Below are positions 8,002 through 27,553 of a stretch of 64,000 nucleotides of DNA, one piece after another. This stretch comes from a virus, in IMG/VR virus record IMGVR_UViG_3300045988_083460; one strand, given 5' to 3'. Under the pieces are notes generated by a model that searched no databases, was not told the DNA's origin, and saw only the letters and a list, made by a program, of their open reading frames with translations. Within the stretch, counting starts at the first letter, position 1, and each line of letters starts with the position of its first letter. Made by a program: the position numbers and the translations under genes.

Positions 8002-9306
8002 ATGATAGAATTACAGAAGTTACAAAATGATTTTGAATCTGTACTTGTTCATTCTCAAGATTATCCATTTTATCTCGATTCAAAAAATTTAATCGAACAA
8101 TGGGCAGAAGCGAAAAAAGATATAATAAATCTTTTTGGCGGAGAATTGATATTAAGAAGCAAGGAACCAATTAAAATTCTTTTGACAGAAGAGCAGAAGA
8201 ATAAAAGATTTGAAGAGTTTATTCAAGCTCTTGATGAAAACGGAATCTTAACTACTGATCTCGAATTATTTTTGAGAGATAATAAAGGAGGATTTTTTGA
8301 TAACAGAGTTTTATTACCATATCCTTCTTTTAATATTCCACTAGGTTCTAAATTATCCAAATCTTTTAAGCGATTTATTAATAGTCAAGAGATTGTTAGA
8401 TGGGCACAAGATACTGCTTCAAGATATATGCAAGAAAATAAAATAGAAGGATATTTATATCTTTCTATTCATCCTCTTGATTTCTTAACTATTTCAGAAA
8501 ACAATGAAAATTGGTGGTCATGTCAGTCTCTTGATGGAGATTATAGAAGTGGAAATCTTAGTTATTTAGTAGATAAAACAACTATTGTTGCTTATTTATC
8601 TAATGGTAAACAAGAGCATCTAAAATGTCTTCCATTAGGAATGAAATGGAATAGCAAAAAATGGAGAATGTTAGTCCATACAGATGGTATCAGAAATATT
8701 TATTATAATAGACAATATCCATATGAATCAAGAGATTTACTCGCTTGTGTACATAATATGTTACTTAAATTGATTAAATTTGATATGTCTCTTCCTCTTG
8801 ATTATGGATTTAAAGTAATCCAAACTCAATGGGGTAGTGAGCAACTTATATATAATCAAATAAATGCAGGTGGACGTATTCATGATACGAGAGATGTAAT
8901 TGATATGAGTGATTATTTAGGATATTCCGATTTAGTTATTTCTAGTACGTACGCACCGATTATATCAGTAAATAATGGAAAGTATGAGGATTATACAAAG
9001 CATTTAGATCAAAATAAATATGTGGAAGAACTATATTTTAATGATGTTTTTCAAATCAAAATTGGTGAAAGACCAATTTGCCCCTGTTGTGGAACAGAAC
9101 ATATAAATAGAGAAGATTCATTTTTATGTAATTTCTGCATATCAGAGAAAGAGGCAGATGAAGATTTCTTCTTGACTTGTAATAGTTGTTATCGTAGAAT
9201 ATATGATGAAGATAAAATTTATTGGATGGATGGTAGGCCGTATTGTAAAACTTGCCATAATCTAATGAAACAAGAGGATAGATTAATCGAGGAGGACGAT
9301 GAATAA
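8002..9306 (+). CDS. hypothetical protein with C-terminal CxxC zinc-ribbon motifs
   Basis: 434-aa ORF; C-terminal CPCCG...CNFC...CNSC...CKTC. Confidence 0.5.
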   Translation: MIELQKLQNDFESVLVHSQDYPFYLDSKNLIEQWAEAKKDIINLFGGELILRSKEPIKILLTEEQKNKRFEEFIQALDENGILTTDLELFLRDNKGGFFDNRVLLPYPSFNIPLGSKLSKSFKRFINSQEIVRWAQDTASRYMQENKIEGYLYLSIHPLDFLTISENNENWWSCQSLDGDYRSGNLSYLVDKTTIVAYLSNGKQEHLKCLPLGMKWNSKKWRMLVHTDGIRNIYYNRQYPYESRDLLACVHNMLLKLIKFDMSLPLDYGFKVIQTQWGSEQLIYNQINAGGRIHDTRDVIDMSDYLGYSDLVISSTYAPIISVNNGKYEDYTKHLDQNKYVEELYFNDVFQIKIGERPICPCCGTEHINREDSFLCNFCISEKEADEDFFLTCNSCYRRIYDEDKIYWMDGRPYCKTCHNLMKQEDRLIEEDDE

Positions 9307-14094: not shown

Positions 14095-14361
14095 CAGCAA
14101 CTTTAAATCATATGTTTTTGGTACATAATAAGATGAAAAGGGGTCTAGTAAAATGAATTTAAAAACTATAAAGCAGGCTCAAAAGAAATCTCCAGAAGAG
14201 CTGCAAGAATATCTTCATTTTAAACAGAGAGGTTCTATAACAAGAGCAAAGAAAGGAAAAGGTTCCTTTAATAGAAAACTCAAGCATAAAAATCTTTTTG
14301 AAAATTCTTAATTTTTATTATATAATATATATAGAAAGTTAAGGAAAGGAAGTTTTGAGTT

Positions 14362-16674: not shown

Positions 16675-16746
16675 GTCCGCAAGGACAAAATTTCTTGAAG
16701 TGTTATATACCCCTTTTGCTTATATAATTAACAAGAGGGGTCACAT

Positions 16747-17062
16747 GGGGCCGTAAAGGTTTCGACGGGGCATTGAAGGATTAAAGTTCACGGGTATGCA
16801 CACCCCCTTAAGGGGCAACAAAAATTAACTGACAACGATTATTTCGAGAATTATCTTGCGGCTTGAGCTAAGCTCGCCGCTTAACCCTTGAGTTTCTTTG
16901 TTTACTCTCTTAAACAAAGTGGTGGAGGTAAACCAGTACGCTTAATGGAGTGTGGTTTGTTAAAGCCTATCCCACTTAATGGATAAAGTTTAACTATCGT
17001 GTGAAAAGACTTTAATTATATAGGTGTTTCGGACGCGGGTTCGACTCCCGCCGGCTCCACCA
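16747..17062 (+). ncRNA. ssrA: tmRNA (ssrA), about 316 nt; predicted tag ends ...NDYFENYLAA then TGA
   Basis: 5' GGGGCCGTAAAGGTTTCGACGGGG and 3' GGACGCGGGTTCGACTCCCGCCGGCTCCACCA closely match E. coli tmRNA ends; internal ORF AATTATCTTGCGGCTTGA encodes NYLAA-stop. Confidence 0.8.
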
Positions 17063-19295: not shown

Positions 19296-19369
19296 AGCGG
19301 ATTGGTGTAATGGTAACACGCGGGACTTTGACTCCCTTGTTAGAGGTTCGACCCCTCTATCCGCTGCCA
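19296..19369 (+). tRNA. tRNA-Gln (anticodon UUG)
   Basis: perfect acceptor AGCGGAT/ATCCGCT, anticodon loop CTTTGAC, G73-CCA. Confidence 0.7.
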
Positions 19370-19616
19370 TATACCGCTTTAGTGTAGCGGTCTGCACGCT
19401 TGGCTCTGAACCAAGAAGTTTTCGTTCAACACGAAGAAGCGGTGCCAGTAATAGAAGCAATACGTACAGAAATCGTAAATAAGACTTCTATTGTCAGGAT
19501 GTAGGATTGAAAGCGTCCACCATTTAAAGAGTGGCGAGTAAACCTGCAGGGCTCGCCTTTGGCGTAGTAGCACACTGACGAGGTTCTCGATTAACCTTAT
19601 CCAAAATCGTTTATAT

Positions 19617-19733
19617 GGGGAGTTAGCTCAGTTGGTAGAGCGCGTTATAGTTTGGTCTTGTTAAAGACCGTAACAGCAATCTTTAACTTGCTTTGGGTGC
19701 ACGATGTCGCAGGTTCGAGTCCTGCACTCCCCG
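19617..19733 (+). tRNA. tRNA-like gene with about 49-nt insertion in the anticodon/variable region; anticodon undetermined
   Basis: perfect acceptor GGGGAGT/ACTCCCC, canonical D-arm (GCTC-AGTTGGTA-GAGC) and T-arm (GCAGG-TTCGAGT-CCTGC) separated by 66 nt instead of about 22. Confidence 0.5.
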
Positions 19734-21557: not shown

Positions 21558-21813
21558 ATGATTACTATTGGTAAAAATATAGATAATAAAGTTTTTTATG
21601 GTACAGTTCATTTTTTATGTGATTACCAAAGTGATGTTGCTAATCTCCCTAAAAACCGCAAGCCGGGCAGTTCAGCCTACGTAATTGAAAATGGAAATAG
21701 ATATATTTTCAATTCTGATCATGAATGGGTGTTGTAGCACTCTGGTGGAGGCGGAGATTAGCCTCTTCCTCCAGAAGATACAACTATTATTTATGATGGC
21801 GGACTAATTGGCT
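21558..21813 (+). CDS. hypothetical small protein; 2 in-frame TAG
   Basis: RBS AAGGAG; frame open through TAG 21729 and 21756 to TAA. Confidence 0.45.
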
Positions 21814-21829
21814 AAAGGAGGGAGTGACT

Positions 21830-22390
21830 TTGGCTGAAGTTGTTTATAAAACAATATTTTAGTTCAAGCGAGGAACATCAGAGAAGTGGACCGAATTAAA
21901 TCCAATTCTTCGTCAAGGTGAGCCGGGATTTGAAATAGATACTGGAAAGTTAAAAATTGGAGATGGAGCCACCGAGTGGAAATAGTTAAAATATATAAAT
22001 AGTAGTTTGGTAAATGTTGATGTAGACAATCAATCTATTGTTATTGATGGAATTGGACAGATTTCATTAAAAGGATTTGCAGAAGCATCAACAGGGCAAT
22101 CTATTAGAAAAAGAGAAGATGGCACATTAGAGTGGTATACTCCAATATCTTAGGATAAAGTAATAGAAACTATCTCTATCGGAAATAAAGATTTGCCGGT
22201 TGAAGATAATAAAGTTACTATTCCGGCGGGAACAGAAGAAAATCTTGGTTTAATTAAGGGGAGTAGTTAGAATAATTAGATAAAAATACTTTCAGATGGA
22301 ACCGGAGAAATTAATTCTGTAGGACTTGATAAAATAGTGGATGTTGAAGGTTTTACTTTAATATTAAACTGTGGGACAGCAGTAGACTAA
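21830..22390 (+). CDS. tail-fibre protein A with conserved N-terminal fibre module; 6 in-frame TAG
   Basis: TTG start after AAAGGAGGGAG; motif NPILRQGEPGFEIDTGKLKIGDGATEW shared with genes at 22411, 24688, 26096; frame open to TAA 22388. Confidence 0.55.
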
Positions 22391-22410
22391 AATAAGGAGG
22401 CATTTTAAAG

Positions 22411-23472
22411 ATGGCCAATGAATTAAAAACTAGAATCCAACTTAGACATGATACCGAGGAAAATTGGACTTCAGTTAAGGACTCCTTTATTCCTCTCGTT
22501 GGAGAGGCTTGTCTTACCACCGATGGCGAGAATAAAGGAAAAGTAAAATATGGTGATGGAACAAGCACTTGGGGTTAGTTAGAATATTCTGGTGGAAAAG
22601 ATATTGTAGAAGTTGATTCATCTATTGTAAAATTTGATGATGATTTTACATTTACCTATACTTTTGGTAAATATGCTCCTGGAGGAGATGGATCTGTTAA
22701 TATTCCCGCGACTGGAAAAACATTAGATCAATTACTGCTAGATGCTTTTGCGGAAGAAAAAAATCCTACTATTACGCAACCTTCTGTTAGTATTTCCTCT
22801 AGTCAAATGAAAGCGTATGAAGCAGGCACTAATGTAACTCCAACTTATACTGCAACTTTAAATAAAGGATCTTATCAATACGGCCCAGACACTGGAATTA
22901 CAGCAACCGGTTGGAGCGTCCAATTTGATGAAGAAACAAAAACAGAAGCTACTGGAACTTTCTCTGAAATTCAAGTTGAAGATGCTACTAATTTAAAGAT
23001 TACAGCAACAGCTAATTATGGGAATGGAGCTATTCCTGTTACAAATCTTGGTTCTGAATATGTAGAAGGACAGATTAAAGCTGGATCTAAGTCTAATAGC
23101 ACAGGAGCTATTACTGGATATCGCTAGATTTTTTATGGAGTTAATAATTCTACAGATCCTTTAACTAGCGCGATTATTCGTTCTTTAACAGCAAGCAATA
23201 AAGCGGCAGCCGCAATGACTATTAATAGCATTAAAGCAAAAAGTGATACTAAGAGAATTATTATCGCAGTTCCTCAATCTTCTGGGCTTAAAGTTACCGC
23301 AGCTAATATTACTTCTAGTTTGAACGCAGATGTAACTTCTAGCTATGTAAAGCAAGGACCAGTGCAAGTAGAAGGAGCAAATGGATTTACCGCGGTTCCT
23401 TATGATGTATTCGTTTATCAACCTGCTTCCATTGATCCAACTGAGGATCATAAGGTTGTAATTGGAAAGTAA
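22411..23472 (+). CDS. tail-fibre / receptor-binding protein B; 2 in-frame TAG
   Basis: N-terminal RIQLRHDTEENW...KYGDGTSTW module; ORF-track fragments 22807..23127 and 23215..23472 lie in the same frame joined by TAG. Confidence 0.6.
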
Positions 23473-23489
23473 GGAAGGAGGAACAAATA

Positions 23490-24662
23490 ATGGCAGTAAT
23501 TAACAAAGATATTGCATATATGGCGTTACCTCTGAGTATTCGTAGAGGAAATCCTTTCCCTATTGATGAATATTCAGTATGGTATGATATGGAAGAATTA
23601 ACAACATATGCTCAATCTAGTCCTGTAGCATATGTTGGTTAGGTAGTTACCTTAGTTAATGAAAAAGAAAATACAGTTGAAGCGTATATGATTCAAAATG
23701 CTGCTGGCAATTTAATGAAATTGGCTTCAACTACTGCTTCTGGTGATTTAACGGAAGATGTTTTAGAGCTTCAAGGAAAAGTTTCCGCATTAGAAACCTC
23801 TGTTGGTACCAAAGAAGAAGAAAGTTCAATAACAGCTTCTAATCTTTGGGCAGCCATTGAGGAAGTTAAAGCAGCTTATGAAGCAGCTGATAGTTCTATT
23901 AATGGAAAATTTAATGATTATTATAATAAAACAGAAGCAGATTCTAAGATTGACCAAAAAATTGCTACTGCAATAAGTTCAACTTATAAACCTGCTGGTT
24001 CCATTATGTTTAGTTTCCTTCCTACACTTGGAGCTGATCAAGAGGGAAAAGTATATAATATTATAGATGCTTTCACCACTACTGAAGACTTCGTTGAAGG
24101 AGCCGATAATAAATATCCAGCTGGAACTAATGTAGTATGTATTGACACTGATGATGCTGGAACTTACAAATGGGATGTTCTCGCGGGATTTGTAGATTTA
24201 AGTGGATACGAAACTACAAGTAGTGTAGATACTAAGTTAGCTAATAAAGTCGACAAAGTAGAAGGATCATCTTTAGTTCAAGATATTCTAATTGCTAAAT
24301 TATAGGGTTTAGCAGAAATCAAAGGAGTTAGTGATGAATTAGAAATTGATCCTGATGATAAAACTCTTGGCGTAAAAGCGATTGCATAGGAGAAAATTAC
24401 TGGCCTTCCCGCGGCTTTAGCAGAGAAGATTAAGAGTATAACCGTAGGAACTACTCCTCTTTAGGTTAGCGATGGCGCAGTTACTATTCCTATTGCTACA
24501 GCAGAGGCTCTTGGTGTAGTAAAAAGCACCACTAGTGAAAACGGCGTTTCTATTACAGGCGATGGAACTATGATTGTCAATAACATAAATATAGAAAAAA
24601 TTACTTAGACTCCTGGTACAGAGCTTATCTTAAATGGTGGAGATGCTACTGTTAGTGAATAA
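23490..24662 (+). CDS. tail-fibre protein C; about 5 in-frame TAG
   Basis: same frame as ORF 23688..24305, extends through TAG codons to TAA 24660; C-terminal domain paralogous to gene D. Confidence 0.55.
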
Positions 24663-24687
24663 AAATCAACTTGGAGGAAGATAAATA

Positions 24688-26025
24688 ATGGCTACAACTT
24701 TTAATACAAGAATCCAATTAAAATATGATACTTATGAAAATTGGGATACCAATAACCCCGTTCTTCTAAAAGGAGAAATGGCGGTTGTTGAAGTTCCTGT
24801 TGAAACTGGAGTTGCTCAAAATGAGCCTACCTATTTGTTAAAAATCGGTGACGGTGAATCAGATTTTAAAACTTTAAAATGGGTAAGCGGGACGGCCGCA
24901 GATGTTTATACTTGGGCTAAAGCGGCAAGTAAACCAACTTATGCAGCGACTGAAATTACCGGACTTGAAGATTTTATTGGAGAAAAAATTCAAGATACCG
25001 ATACACAATATTAGATTGTTAAAAATGGAGATATGGGTTTTAAGCTTCAATCTAGACCAAAAACTGGCGGATCTTGGACAGATGTAAGCACTATTGCTCT
25101 GACCGCTCCCACTTATAATTTAGTCGAAGGGACTACTAATGGTACTGTAAAATTTGGAGTTACTGGTTCTGAAAAAGAAGTAAAAGTTCATGGACTTGGA
25201 TCAGCAGCTTATACTGAATCTGGTGCTTATGACGCAGCTGGTAGTGCAGATACAGCAAAAAGCGAAGCTATCGATGAAGCTGCTAATGCCACCGATGAAA
25301 AAATTGCAGCTCTAAAAATCAATGAATATGCAAAAACCACAGAAGTAGATTCTAAAATTGGGGCAGCAAAAACAGAGTTAATTGGTGAAGGAAGTGGTTC
25401 TTCCACTACTATTAAAGGTGCTTATGATGAAGCTAAAACCTATACTGATTAGCAAATTGCTGCTAGAATTTCCTCTACTTATAAAGCCGGAGGATCTATT
25501 GCGTTCGCTTCTCTACCAGAACTAACTGCAACAGAAGAAGGAAAGGTTTATAACATTCTTGATAAATTCACTACTACAGACGATTTCGTAGAAGGTTCCG
25601 GGAAGAGTTATCCTGCTGGTACTAATATTGTTTGTATAGATGTGGGAGAAGAAGAATTTAAATGGGATGTTTTAGCTGGAATGGTAGATCTTTCAGCGTA
25701 TGATACAGCAGAGATAACTCAGGGAAAAATTGATTCCGCTAAGCAAGAGGCCAAAAGCTATGCAGATTCTAAAGTTAACGCTTTAGATAAAGAAGATTCA
25801 GCCGTAGAAAATCAATTTGTAACTGCGGTGTCTGAGACTGATGGTATCATTAGCGTAACTCGTGCTCAACCTACCATGGAGAATATCAACGGGTTACCTG
25901 CGGCTCTTACTAAAAAAGCTAATGATGCAGACTTAGCATCTGTTGCTAAAAGTGGAAAGATTGATGATCTAACTCAGACCGCTACAATTATTTTTAATTG
26001 TGGAAGTTCTAGCACAGTAATATAA
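24688..26025 (+). CDS. tail-fibre protein D; 2 in-frame TAG
   Basis: N-terminal module TRIQLKYDTYENW...LKIGDGESDF; ORF fragments 24688..25014, 25033..25452, 25642..26025 share one frame. Confidence 0.6.
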
Positions 26026-26824: not shown

Positions 26825-27061
26825 TCTATAATTAAAGGAGAAATATAATGCGCTGGTTAGTGAATTATATTCGACAAATATTTTGTAAACACGATTTTGT
26901 TTTTGATGAAGGTTGGGCAGAAAAAACAAGTGATTCAGGATCTTTTCGCAAAGGGATAAAAGTTTCTTGCTATTGTAAGAAATGTTCTTATCATAAATCT
27001 TGGTGGAAGTATTGACAATAAAAAATTTTTTTGATATAATATTTATAGAAAGTTGAAAGAT

Positions 27062-27477: not shown

Positions 27478-27553
27478 TGCGGAGTAGCGTAATGGTTTAG
27501 CGCAGGGGTCTCTAAAACCTCGGGAGTGGGTTCGAATCCCACCTCCGCTGCCA
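27478..27553 (+). tRNA. amber suppressor tRNA (anticodon CUA), Gln-type
   Basis: anticodon arm GGGGT-CTCTAAA-ACCTC gives C34 U35 A36; weak 1-72 pair (U1/U72) and G73 resemble tRNA-Gln identity; T-arm GTGGG-TTCGAAT-CCCAC; CCA encoded. Confidence 0.75.

Follow-up and report, generated by a model that had tools for sequence, protein, structure and literature searches.

A complete tmRNA gene with its own tag family in the tRNA island of a TAG-recoded phage

Transfer-messenger RNA (tmRNA), which rescues stalled ribosomes and tags the incomplete proteins on them, is encoded by cluster C mycobacteriophages and other phages. In a survey of 18,146 phage genomes, 402 had a tmRNA, some of them in two-piece form as in the marine phage Melnitz and other marine phages (PMC9004378). 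Huge phages carry tmRNA together with SmpB (PMC7162821). Among phages that change the genetic code, a recoding survey describes suppressor tRNAs, synthetases and release factors as the code-change genes and never mentions tmRNA (Borges et al., preprint 10.1101/2021.08.26.457843); in the literature searched we found no paper linking natural recoded phages to a phage tmRNA. Here, we investigated a tmRNA gene (ssrA) at positions 16747-17062 (+ strand) of a 64,000-nucleotide stretch of viral DNA, the IMG/VR record IMGVR_UViG_3300045988_083460 (this whole stretch is called the window for simplicity). Like the known phage tmRNAs it is a complete ssrA in a large, tRNA-rich and apparently virulent phage, for which a role in maintaining the hijacked translation machinery has been proposed. 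Since phage tmRNAs are already established, such a gene is unsurprising in a phage with 31 tRNAs. What is new lies in the detail and sets this gene apart from the known phage tmRNAs: in its clade, which consists of TAG-recoded phages, the tmRNA is unannotated, ARAGORN calls it only for one allele type, it has a tag family of its own (Asp resume codon, UGA stop), and its alleles recombine freely.

The segment is a full-length, intact one-piece tmRNA gene of 316 nt with an encoded CCA end. A preliminary description made from the sequence alone had assigned it to tmRNA, and this assignment is confirmed at the exact coordinates by two programs: ARAGORN reported a tmRNA at 16747-17062 (+) with the tag DNDYFENYLAA* at gene positions 85-120 (window 16831-16866), and the covariance model of Rfam RF00023 matched over its whole length (1-374) with 116.3 bits (gathering score 47, E 9.5e-45). 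The termini quoted there (5' GGGGCCGTAAAGGTTTCGACGGGG, 3' GGACGCGGGTTCGACTCCCGCCGGCTCCACCA) are indeed the ends of the gene, and the frame GAC AAC GAT TAT TTC GAG AAT TAT CTT GCG GCT TGA had been read correctly as encoding DNDYFENYLAA.

As far as can be judged from sequence, the features of a one-piece tmRNA are present outside the pseudoknots. As in bacterial one-piece tmRNA (RF00023), the gene has a 7-bp acceptor stem with the 5' strand GGGGCCG at 16747-16753 and, at 17052-17062, the 3' strand CGGCUCC followed by the discriminator A (17059) and CCA; G3 (16749) pairs with U (17056) to form the G3:U70 pair. The T-arm GCGGG-UUCGACU-CCCGC with its UUCGANU-type loop occupies 17035-17051. A long helix 2 links the tRNA-like domain to the pseudoknot ring; in the RNAalifold structure its 5' strand (16766-16792) pairs with 16998-17031, and this 3' strand contains the near-invariant block CUAUCGUGU. 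In the Rfam alignment, 16792-16830 holds the region of pseudoknot 1 (PK1) and an A-rich leader to the tag frame (…AAAAAUUAACU). The leader ends in UUAACU, which places U and A at -5 and -4 relative to the resume codon, in line with the position rule known from E. coli (PMC3985003 and general background). The tag frame at 16831-16866 runs from the resume codon GAC to the stop TGA (16864-16866) and encodes a short tag with a hydrophobic-Ala-Ala end; the last two Ala codons and the stop codon lie within helix 5 (GCGGCUUGAGC-UAA-GCUCGCCGC, 16858-16880, helix 7 in the RNAalifold numbering), as in the bacterial RNA. Unlike bacterial tmRNA, the window gene lies in a phage tRNA island and not beside a chromosomal smpB, it is short, it resumes at GAC (Asp) where GCN or GGN is usual, and it has a single UGA stop. 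In the PK1 region, a 3-bp helix GGU/ACC is conserved, and a candidate second stem was 71% paired with no double changes and was dropped for lack of covariation support. Downstream of the tag, where PK2-PK4 would be expected, the Rfam alignment continues through at low posterior probability and two hairpins are supported, one of them with a conserved strand GUGGUGGAGG (identical in 26/34 copies). Given the short length of 316 nt, the pseudoknot ring is likely reduced.

The structure was evaluated on 34 distinct copies of the gene from related phages. The consensus contains 49 nested pairs, and 98.8% of all base-pair cells are paired. Compensatory changes on both sides were observed in 24 of the 49 pairs; shuffled columns gave 11.7±1.3 such pairs and did not reach the observed number in any of 500 trials, and control structures with the partners slid by 1-3 columns gave 2-6 pairs with double changes. 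G3:U70 is invariant (34/34 copies) and positions 4-7 of the acceptor stem covary. Both-side changes were found in 15 of the 23 pairs of helix 2, in three of the four counted pairs of the T-stem and in one pair of helix 5, which is 97.9% paired.

The tag peptide is conserved in a comparable manner. Across 50 copies, the family DN[D/A]YF-x-x-[Y/H/N]-[L/I/M/F]-AA is kept via synonymous changes between alleles, and conservation of the peptide indicates that the tag frame is translated. There are 11 tag variants, among them DNDYFENYLAA, DEDYFENYLAA, DNDYFSSNIAA, DNDYFDSYMAA and DNDYFDSHMAA; the initial DNDYF hardly varies, position 9 is taken by L, I, M or F, and the last two Ala are retained through changes between GCG, GCT and GCA. 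In this family the resume codon GAC and the stop UGA occur throughout; the allele type of phage phAss-1 (introduced below) encodes a very different tag of 24 residues that ends in RQAA and stops at UAA. The tag of no allele stops at TAG. Together, the substitution patterns in helices and tag codons demonstrate purifying selection on both the RNA structure and the tag peptide within the phage clade.

The preliminary description had called the tag a ClpXP/SspB-type degron. LAA is a ClpX determinant in E. coli, and the window tag ends in …NYLAA, so the ClpXP part can stand as a prediction that draws on this C-terminal LAA alone; the C-termini of other alleles are IAA, MAA, FAA or QAA. The SspB part is unsupported: (A)DNDYFENY differs from the SspB site AANDENY, and the hosts are likely Clostridia. 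A literature search with the tag strings returned nothing relevant.

In total, 50 copies of the tmRNA (37 distinct) were recovered from independent phage contigs, with the conserved motif, the downstream protein and the tag pattern as probes. The sources were IMG/VR contigs of 82-146 kb, metagenome contigs from ENA/JGI and two 148-kb contigs binned into metagenome-assembled genomes (MAGs). Every copy with enough flanking sequence sits among phage-type tRNA genes, and the order tRNA-Arg(tct), tRNA-Phe, tmRNA of the window is found in most relatives. When 185,579 species genomes were scanned for two invariant tmRNA motifs (a structural-motif pattern), 14 chance matches and two genuine ones were obtained; the latter lie on the 148-kb contigs in Oscillospiraceae and Eubacterium MAGs, which share the tRNA order of the window and are thus phage genomes. 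A scan of metagenomes with the degenerate tag pattern gave 37 contigs, all with copies among phage-type tRNA clusters. Neither scan returned a copy in a bacterial chromosomal context, and thus no bacterial counterpart of the window gene; as both used exact patterns, a somewhat different host tag could escape them. The route to a host through the tag that had been suggested earlier thus yielded no host, and the tag family was seen in no bacterial genome or metagenome contig outside a phage context.

Within the phage collection, only one record proved to be related, phAss-1 (OQ749652). This 136-kb phage of the human gut belongs to the 'code 15 clade', and its authors propose Clostridia as hosts. 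The tmRNA of phAss-1 is mentioned neither in the paper nor in the GenBank record: we found it, 439 nt long, at 92139-92577 (L001 8001-8439; related loci are given L numbers here), with 77.9 bits in Rfam and missed by ARAGORN. It lies ~10 kb downstream of the tRNA island and is followed by a terminator-like hairpin and a promoter. The window phage belongs to a clade of ~100-150 kb gut phages related to phAss-1 that probably infect Clostridia, and the distribution of copies marks the tmRNA as a long-standing resident of this clade.

These data leave little room for the idea that the gene is foreign to the phage. The attachment site (attP) of many temperate phages consists of the last ~45 nt of ssrA, and such fragments make up nearly all other BLAST matches, at 89% identity to the end of the window gene. 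They lie beside integrases in enterobacterial temperate phages of 30-50 kb; by comparison, the window gene is complete and belongs to a large phage. A non-exhaustive scan of the window ORFs (open reading frames) showed no integrase, and none is mentioned in the phAss-1 paper. The window ORFs include matches to the phage families topoisomerase II, DNA ligase, PhoH, RNA ligase and a Sak4-like protein.

Among the copies of 311-346 nt, at least five allele types can be distinguished, and the 439-nt phAss-1 type comes in addition; their mutual identity is only 66-72%. ARAGORN called allele type 1 and reported no tmRNA in loci holding types 2-5. Three blocks are common to the alleles: CACGGGUA (32/34 copies), AGUGGUGGAGG (26/34) and CUAUCGUGU (33/34). 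The allele type does not track the flanks. Between the window and L007 the two upstream tRNAs are 100% and 99% identical and the downstream gene 94%, and the tmRNAs are only 71% identical; L010 and L024 have flanks of 95-100% identity and tmRNAs of 72%; and between the window and L011 the flanks are 76-87% and the tmRNAs 92% identical. The segment from tRNA-Phe to the downstream gene (phrog_6660) is a variable cassette, which in L007 contains ~880 nt of extra sequence and a tRNA-Lys(ctt). From these comparisons, the alleles recombine freely between near-identical flanks. A CYTH assignment considered for the downstream gene (150 aa, beginning MEIERKW) was dropped, as there was no Pfam match and only the unknown-function family phrog_6660.

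Several smaller features of the cassette were recorded. In two allele types, a 33-nt copy of an internal tmRNA segment (GTTTCTTTC…AAAGTGGTGGA) lies directly 3' of the CCA (L009 9489-9521; the same in L010, L025, L014, L020 and L021), which may be the scar of recombination or allele replacement. The spacer between tRNA-Phe and tmRNA in L009, L010, L024 and L025 (L009 ~9090-9148) contains a tRNA-like mini-element, a perfect 10-bp stem GACCCTCTAT/ATAGAGGGTC around the T-loop-like GAGTTCGATTC; its equivalent in the window (16710-16740) is a plain 9-bp hairpin. L020 and L021 carry the DNDYFDSYMAA allele, and in these relatives ARAGORN called tRNAs with four-base anticodons (taaa, tgtt; L020 4753-4826 and 11795-11869, L021 4959-5035 and 11258-11331).

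The tmRNA had been described as lying inside a tRNA island, and it is indeed surrounded by 31 tRNA genes on the same strand. The 32 RNA genes of the island are served by ~12 strong host-type promoters of the form TTGAAA-N17-TATAAT. The closest one upstream of the tmRNA, of sigma-70 type, is at 14298-14326 (+; repeat family D1/D2, 12/12 match), and no promoter-like site was detected on the + strand between it and the tmRNA. We infer that it starts a polycistronic unit holding tRNA-Lys, Gly, Ile, Trp, Arg and Phe, the tmRNA, two ORFs and tRNA-Arg, Ser and Pro. None of the tmRNA alleles has a dedicated promoter in the 200 nt upstream of it. The earlier suggestion that the gene differs from its neighbours in this respect does not hold, since the neighbouring tRNA-Arg(tct), Phe, Arg(acg), Ser and Pro genes also lack one. 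A clear terminator-like hairpin after the tmRNA occurs in phAss-1 only. In the window, the 72-nt spacer after tRNA-Phe contains the 9-bp hairpin at 16710-16740 (+), followed by a leader …CACAU that ends in U(-1); hairpin and leader probably belong to a precursor processed by RNase P. T at position -1 is found in 29 of the 32 tRNA and tmRNA genes, and this common U(-1) leader would fit processing of the tmRNA by RNase P like the tRNAs. The ORFs of the unit contain no in-frame TAG and end in TAA or TGA, so that the unit is readable before any code switch.

This last point bears on the genetic code of the phage. When TAG is read as sense, fragmented ORFs of the window join into long ones. The endolysin ORF at 50907-52361 has 10 in-frame TAGs and a full-length Phage_lysozyme2 domain (E 4e-35) together with Amidase_2 and a weak SLH match, and the genes at 21797-26025 (tail-fibre-like), 39120-39998 and 59575-60507 likewise fuse. 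The stops of the 63 standard-code ORFs on the + strand are TAA in 41, TGA in 16 and TAG in six, five of the latter lying inside recoded genes. By these criteria of reading-frame continuity and stop usage, TAG is a sense codon in the late genes of the window phage. In the stretch 21797-26025, four tail-fibre-like ORFs follow one another, each with internal repeats and 2-5 in-frame TAGs; as the stretch is situated between two tRNA blocks, late recoded genes are interleaved with the tRNA island. ARAGORN called an amber suppressor tRNA (anticodon CUA) at 27478-27553 (+), for which the promoter scan gave a promoter of its own at 27012-27040. Of the eight related loci that are long enough, six carry such a tRNA, as does the window, and phAss-1 has three. 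Compared with the window's other tRNAs, it is 69% identical to Trp and 67% to Gln, which is indecisive; Gln is assumed from the phAss-1 paper.

Taking these observations together, we favour, with somewhat more than even confidence as an explanation of the whole, that this is a working tmRNA of a phAss-1-related, TAG-recoding clade that gives extra trans-translation capacity. The RNA would be transcribed from host-type promoters within a polycistron of the tRNA island and excised as the phage tRNAs are, with their common U(-1) leader and its own encoded CCA. It would be charged with alanine by the host alanyl-tRNA synthetase (AlaRS; G3:U70, A73) and brought by host SmpB and EF-Tu to ribosomes stalled at mRNA 3' ends. 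Translation would restart at GAC, append (A)DNDYFENYLAA and terminate at UGA, releasing the ribosome, and the product would bear a hydrophobic-Ala-Ala end of the kind recognised by ClpXP-type proteases. The benefit would be more trans-translation capacity in the infected cell, for which demand is likely increased by the phage amber suppressor driving ribosomes past TAG stops and by mRNA damage during infection. The host proteins enter this scheme because no phage SmpB was found, so that the RNA would have to use host SmpB, AlaRS and EF-Tu: unlike in the huge phages of PMC7162821, tblastn gave a best SmpB E value of 0.15 in the window and the related loci and 0.8 in the complete phAss-1 genome. 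SmpB sequences of E. coli and B. subtilis served as queries, which we judged adequate for detecting a family member. No release factor was found by tblastn in the window, the related loci and the complete phAss-1 genome, and no aminoacyl-tRNA synthetase was found either.

A link of the tmRNA to recoding is suggested from several sides. As in the code-change machinery of recoded phages, tmRNA and suppressor tRNA lie in standard-code-compatible DNA behind host-type promoters, so that the tmRNA can be expressed before the TAG-containing late genes; unlike in the module described by Borges et al., no release factor or synthetase was found here, and the connection between tmRNA and suppressor is hypothetical. 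Suppressor tRNAs raise tmRNA tagging (Ueda 2002, as cited in PMC3985003), and where termination at UAG codons is impaired, these too become sites of tmRNA action (PMC6207430). No tmRNA was found in two cultured standard-code relatives named by the phAss-1 authors, Enterocloster phage PMBT24 and Enterococcus phage EF1; the former has no tRNAs at all and the latter ~15. It is plausible that TAG read-through raises the demand for tmRNA, on a sample that is small and phylogenetically confounded.

One may go further and see in the tmRNA an overlooked accessory of phage stop-codon recoding. Through the amber suppressor, ribosomes would pass TAG stops in both host and early mRNAs and accumulate where the mRNAs end; the phage tmRNA would clear these ribosomes with a UGA-terminated phage-specific tag, freeing them for the TAG-containing late genes; and the swapping alleles would track compatibility with the SmpB and proteases of different hosts, or an arms race. 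As a joint claim we hold this to be rather unlikely. In Lak megaphages, which might have provided independent support, no tmRNA was found within ±20 kb of the SmpB/tRNA region (genome 541 kb). The TAG-recoded Prevotella phage Lak-A1 (MK250018, L085 487053-527481) encodes SmpB ~6 kb upstream of its tRNA cluster.

Several points weigh against our favoured explanation of a working tmRNA with added capacity in a recoding clade. Expression, charging and tagging are predictions from the sequence, and the fit to host SmpB and protease is an assumption. For PK1, which is important in E. coli tmRNA, the second stem has no covariation support. The association with recoding consists of one clade and two non-recoded relatives, is confounded by phylogeny, and one of these relatives has no tRNAs. 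The 20 kb examined of L013, which is distantly related, recoded and equipped with two suppressor tRNAs, contain no tmRNA. Many phages with the standard code have a tmRNA as well (2.3% of genomes, PMC9004378), so that recoding is unnecessary to explain one. Ordinary trans-translation supplied by the phage, which would keep ribosomes available, is the best-supported reading.

An explanation that is compatible with this one, and which taken by itself we regard as possible though clearly less probable, is that the tmRNA belongs to a toolkit sustaining translation when host defences cut RNA. It would act as a backup that frees ribosomes stranded on mRNAs cleaved by abortive-infection or toxin RNases, anticodon nucleases or collateral CRISPR RNases; in a variant, the phage tmRNA may replace a targeted host tmRNA, and the swapped alleles would reflect an arms race or host adaptation. 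tmRNA relieves the action of RelE-type toxins, which fits this idea, as does the content of the same genome arm: a near-complete tRNA set, an RNA ligase, an RNase T-like exonuclease and phosphoesterases with the look of RNA repair, and an NAD salvage set (nicotinamidase-like, Prs-like, NAMPT and NAD synthase). This neighbourhood is merely suggestive, and neither a tmRNA-targeting defence nor a host was identified. The swapping of alleles between near-identical flanks (window and L007, L010 and L024) would be expected from such a conflict, but it can also arise by ordinary recombination among co-circulating phages, and G3:U70, the three sequence blocks and the first five tag residues hardly vary, which indicates purifying and not diversifying selection. 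In favour of the toolkit idea, phage tRNAs have been proposed to evade tRNA-targeting defences (PMC10264068).

We consider it improbable that the tag itself is the point of the gene, that is, that a phage-specific tag DNDYF…[L/I/M/F]AA routes proteins to a particular protease or adaptor for amino-acid recycling, for removal of selected host proteins or for avoiding the host tag pathway. The tag family is conserved, its exact pattern was encountered only in phage contexts (37/37 metagenome contigs, and the two genuine matches of the genome scan also on phage-type contigs), and a comparable idea has been raised for phage Melnitz (PMC9004378); the very different 24-residue tag of the phAss-1-type allele, ending in QAA, has also been counted in its favour. 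However, 'phage-specific' here only means not found elsewhere with the exact pattern, the hydrophobic-Ala-Ala end is the ordinary bacterial degron form, and a tmRNA tags anything stalled, with no known choice of targets.

Host carry-over, mis-assembly, a decaying pseudogene or an ssrA fragment serving as integration site can be set aside as hardly credible, for although ssrA fragments are common at phage attachment sites and most smpB matches in phage records sit at the ends of prophage records, the window gene is full length with phage tRNAs and phage genes on both sides, the same synteny recurs in dozens of independent phage assemblies from many samples, which rules out carry-over and chimera and bears out the earlier attribution of the gene to the phage, its structure and tag show compensatory evolution and conservation, and no bacterial chromosome copy was matched; on these conservation data the chimera, carry-over, pseudogene and attP readings were rejected.

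Three consequences are worth stating. Surveys based on ARAGORN undercount phage tmRNAs, as no call was made in the loci of four of the five allele types tested. The locus offers a testable link between the cost of switching a cell to a code with TAG as an amino acid and ribosome rescue, a link documented in laboratory suppressor strains and, in the literature searched, not considered for natural recoded phages. Finally, the phage-specific tag provides a handle, since peptides ending in ADNDYFENYLAA in gut metaproteomes would reveal proteins that stall in infected cells.

The surroundings of the tRNA island showed some further features. The regions 34259-39040 and 40079-44638 contain an RNA-repair-like run (a weak RlaP match, a metallophosphoesterase, an RNase T-like exonuclease and an RNA ligase) and then NAD salvage genes (isochorismatase/nicotinamidase-like, Prs-like, NAMPT and NAD synthase); these NAD genes recur in phAss-1, placed between its tRNA island and the tmRNA. 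Right after the tRNA island, 28857-33230 encodes two proteins that are unusual as a pair in a phage: the first, of 506 aa, is a DUF2828/DUF7788 protein, and the second, of 813 aa, has the shoulder and repeat domains of major vault protein and weakly matches Band 7 (SPFH). Within the island, tRNA-Gln(ttg) and tRNA-Gln(ctg) of the window are 3 nt apart (19369-19373) without the ROOL RNA (RF03087, 350 bits) that lies between them in L010 (12032-12627) and L011 (10054-10649). At 19617-19733 of the window, Rfam matched a tRNA of 117 nt (49.8 bits) that ARAGORN did not call and that may contain an insertion or intron.

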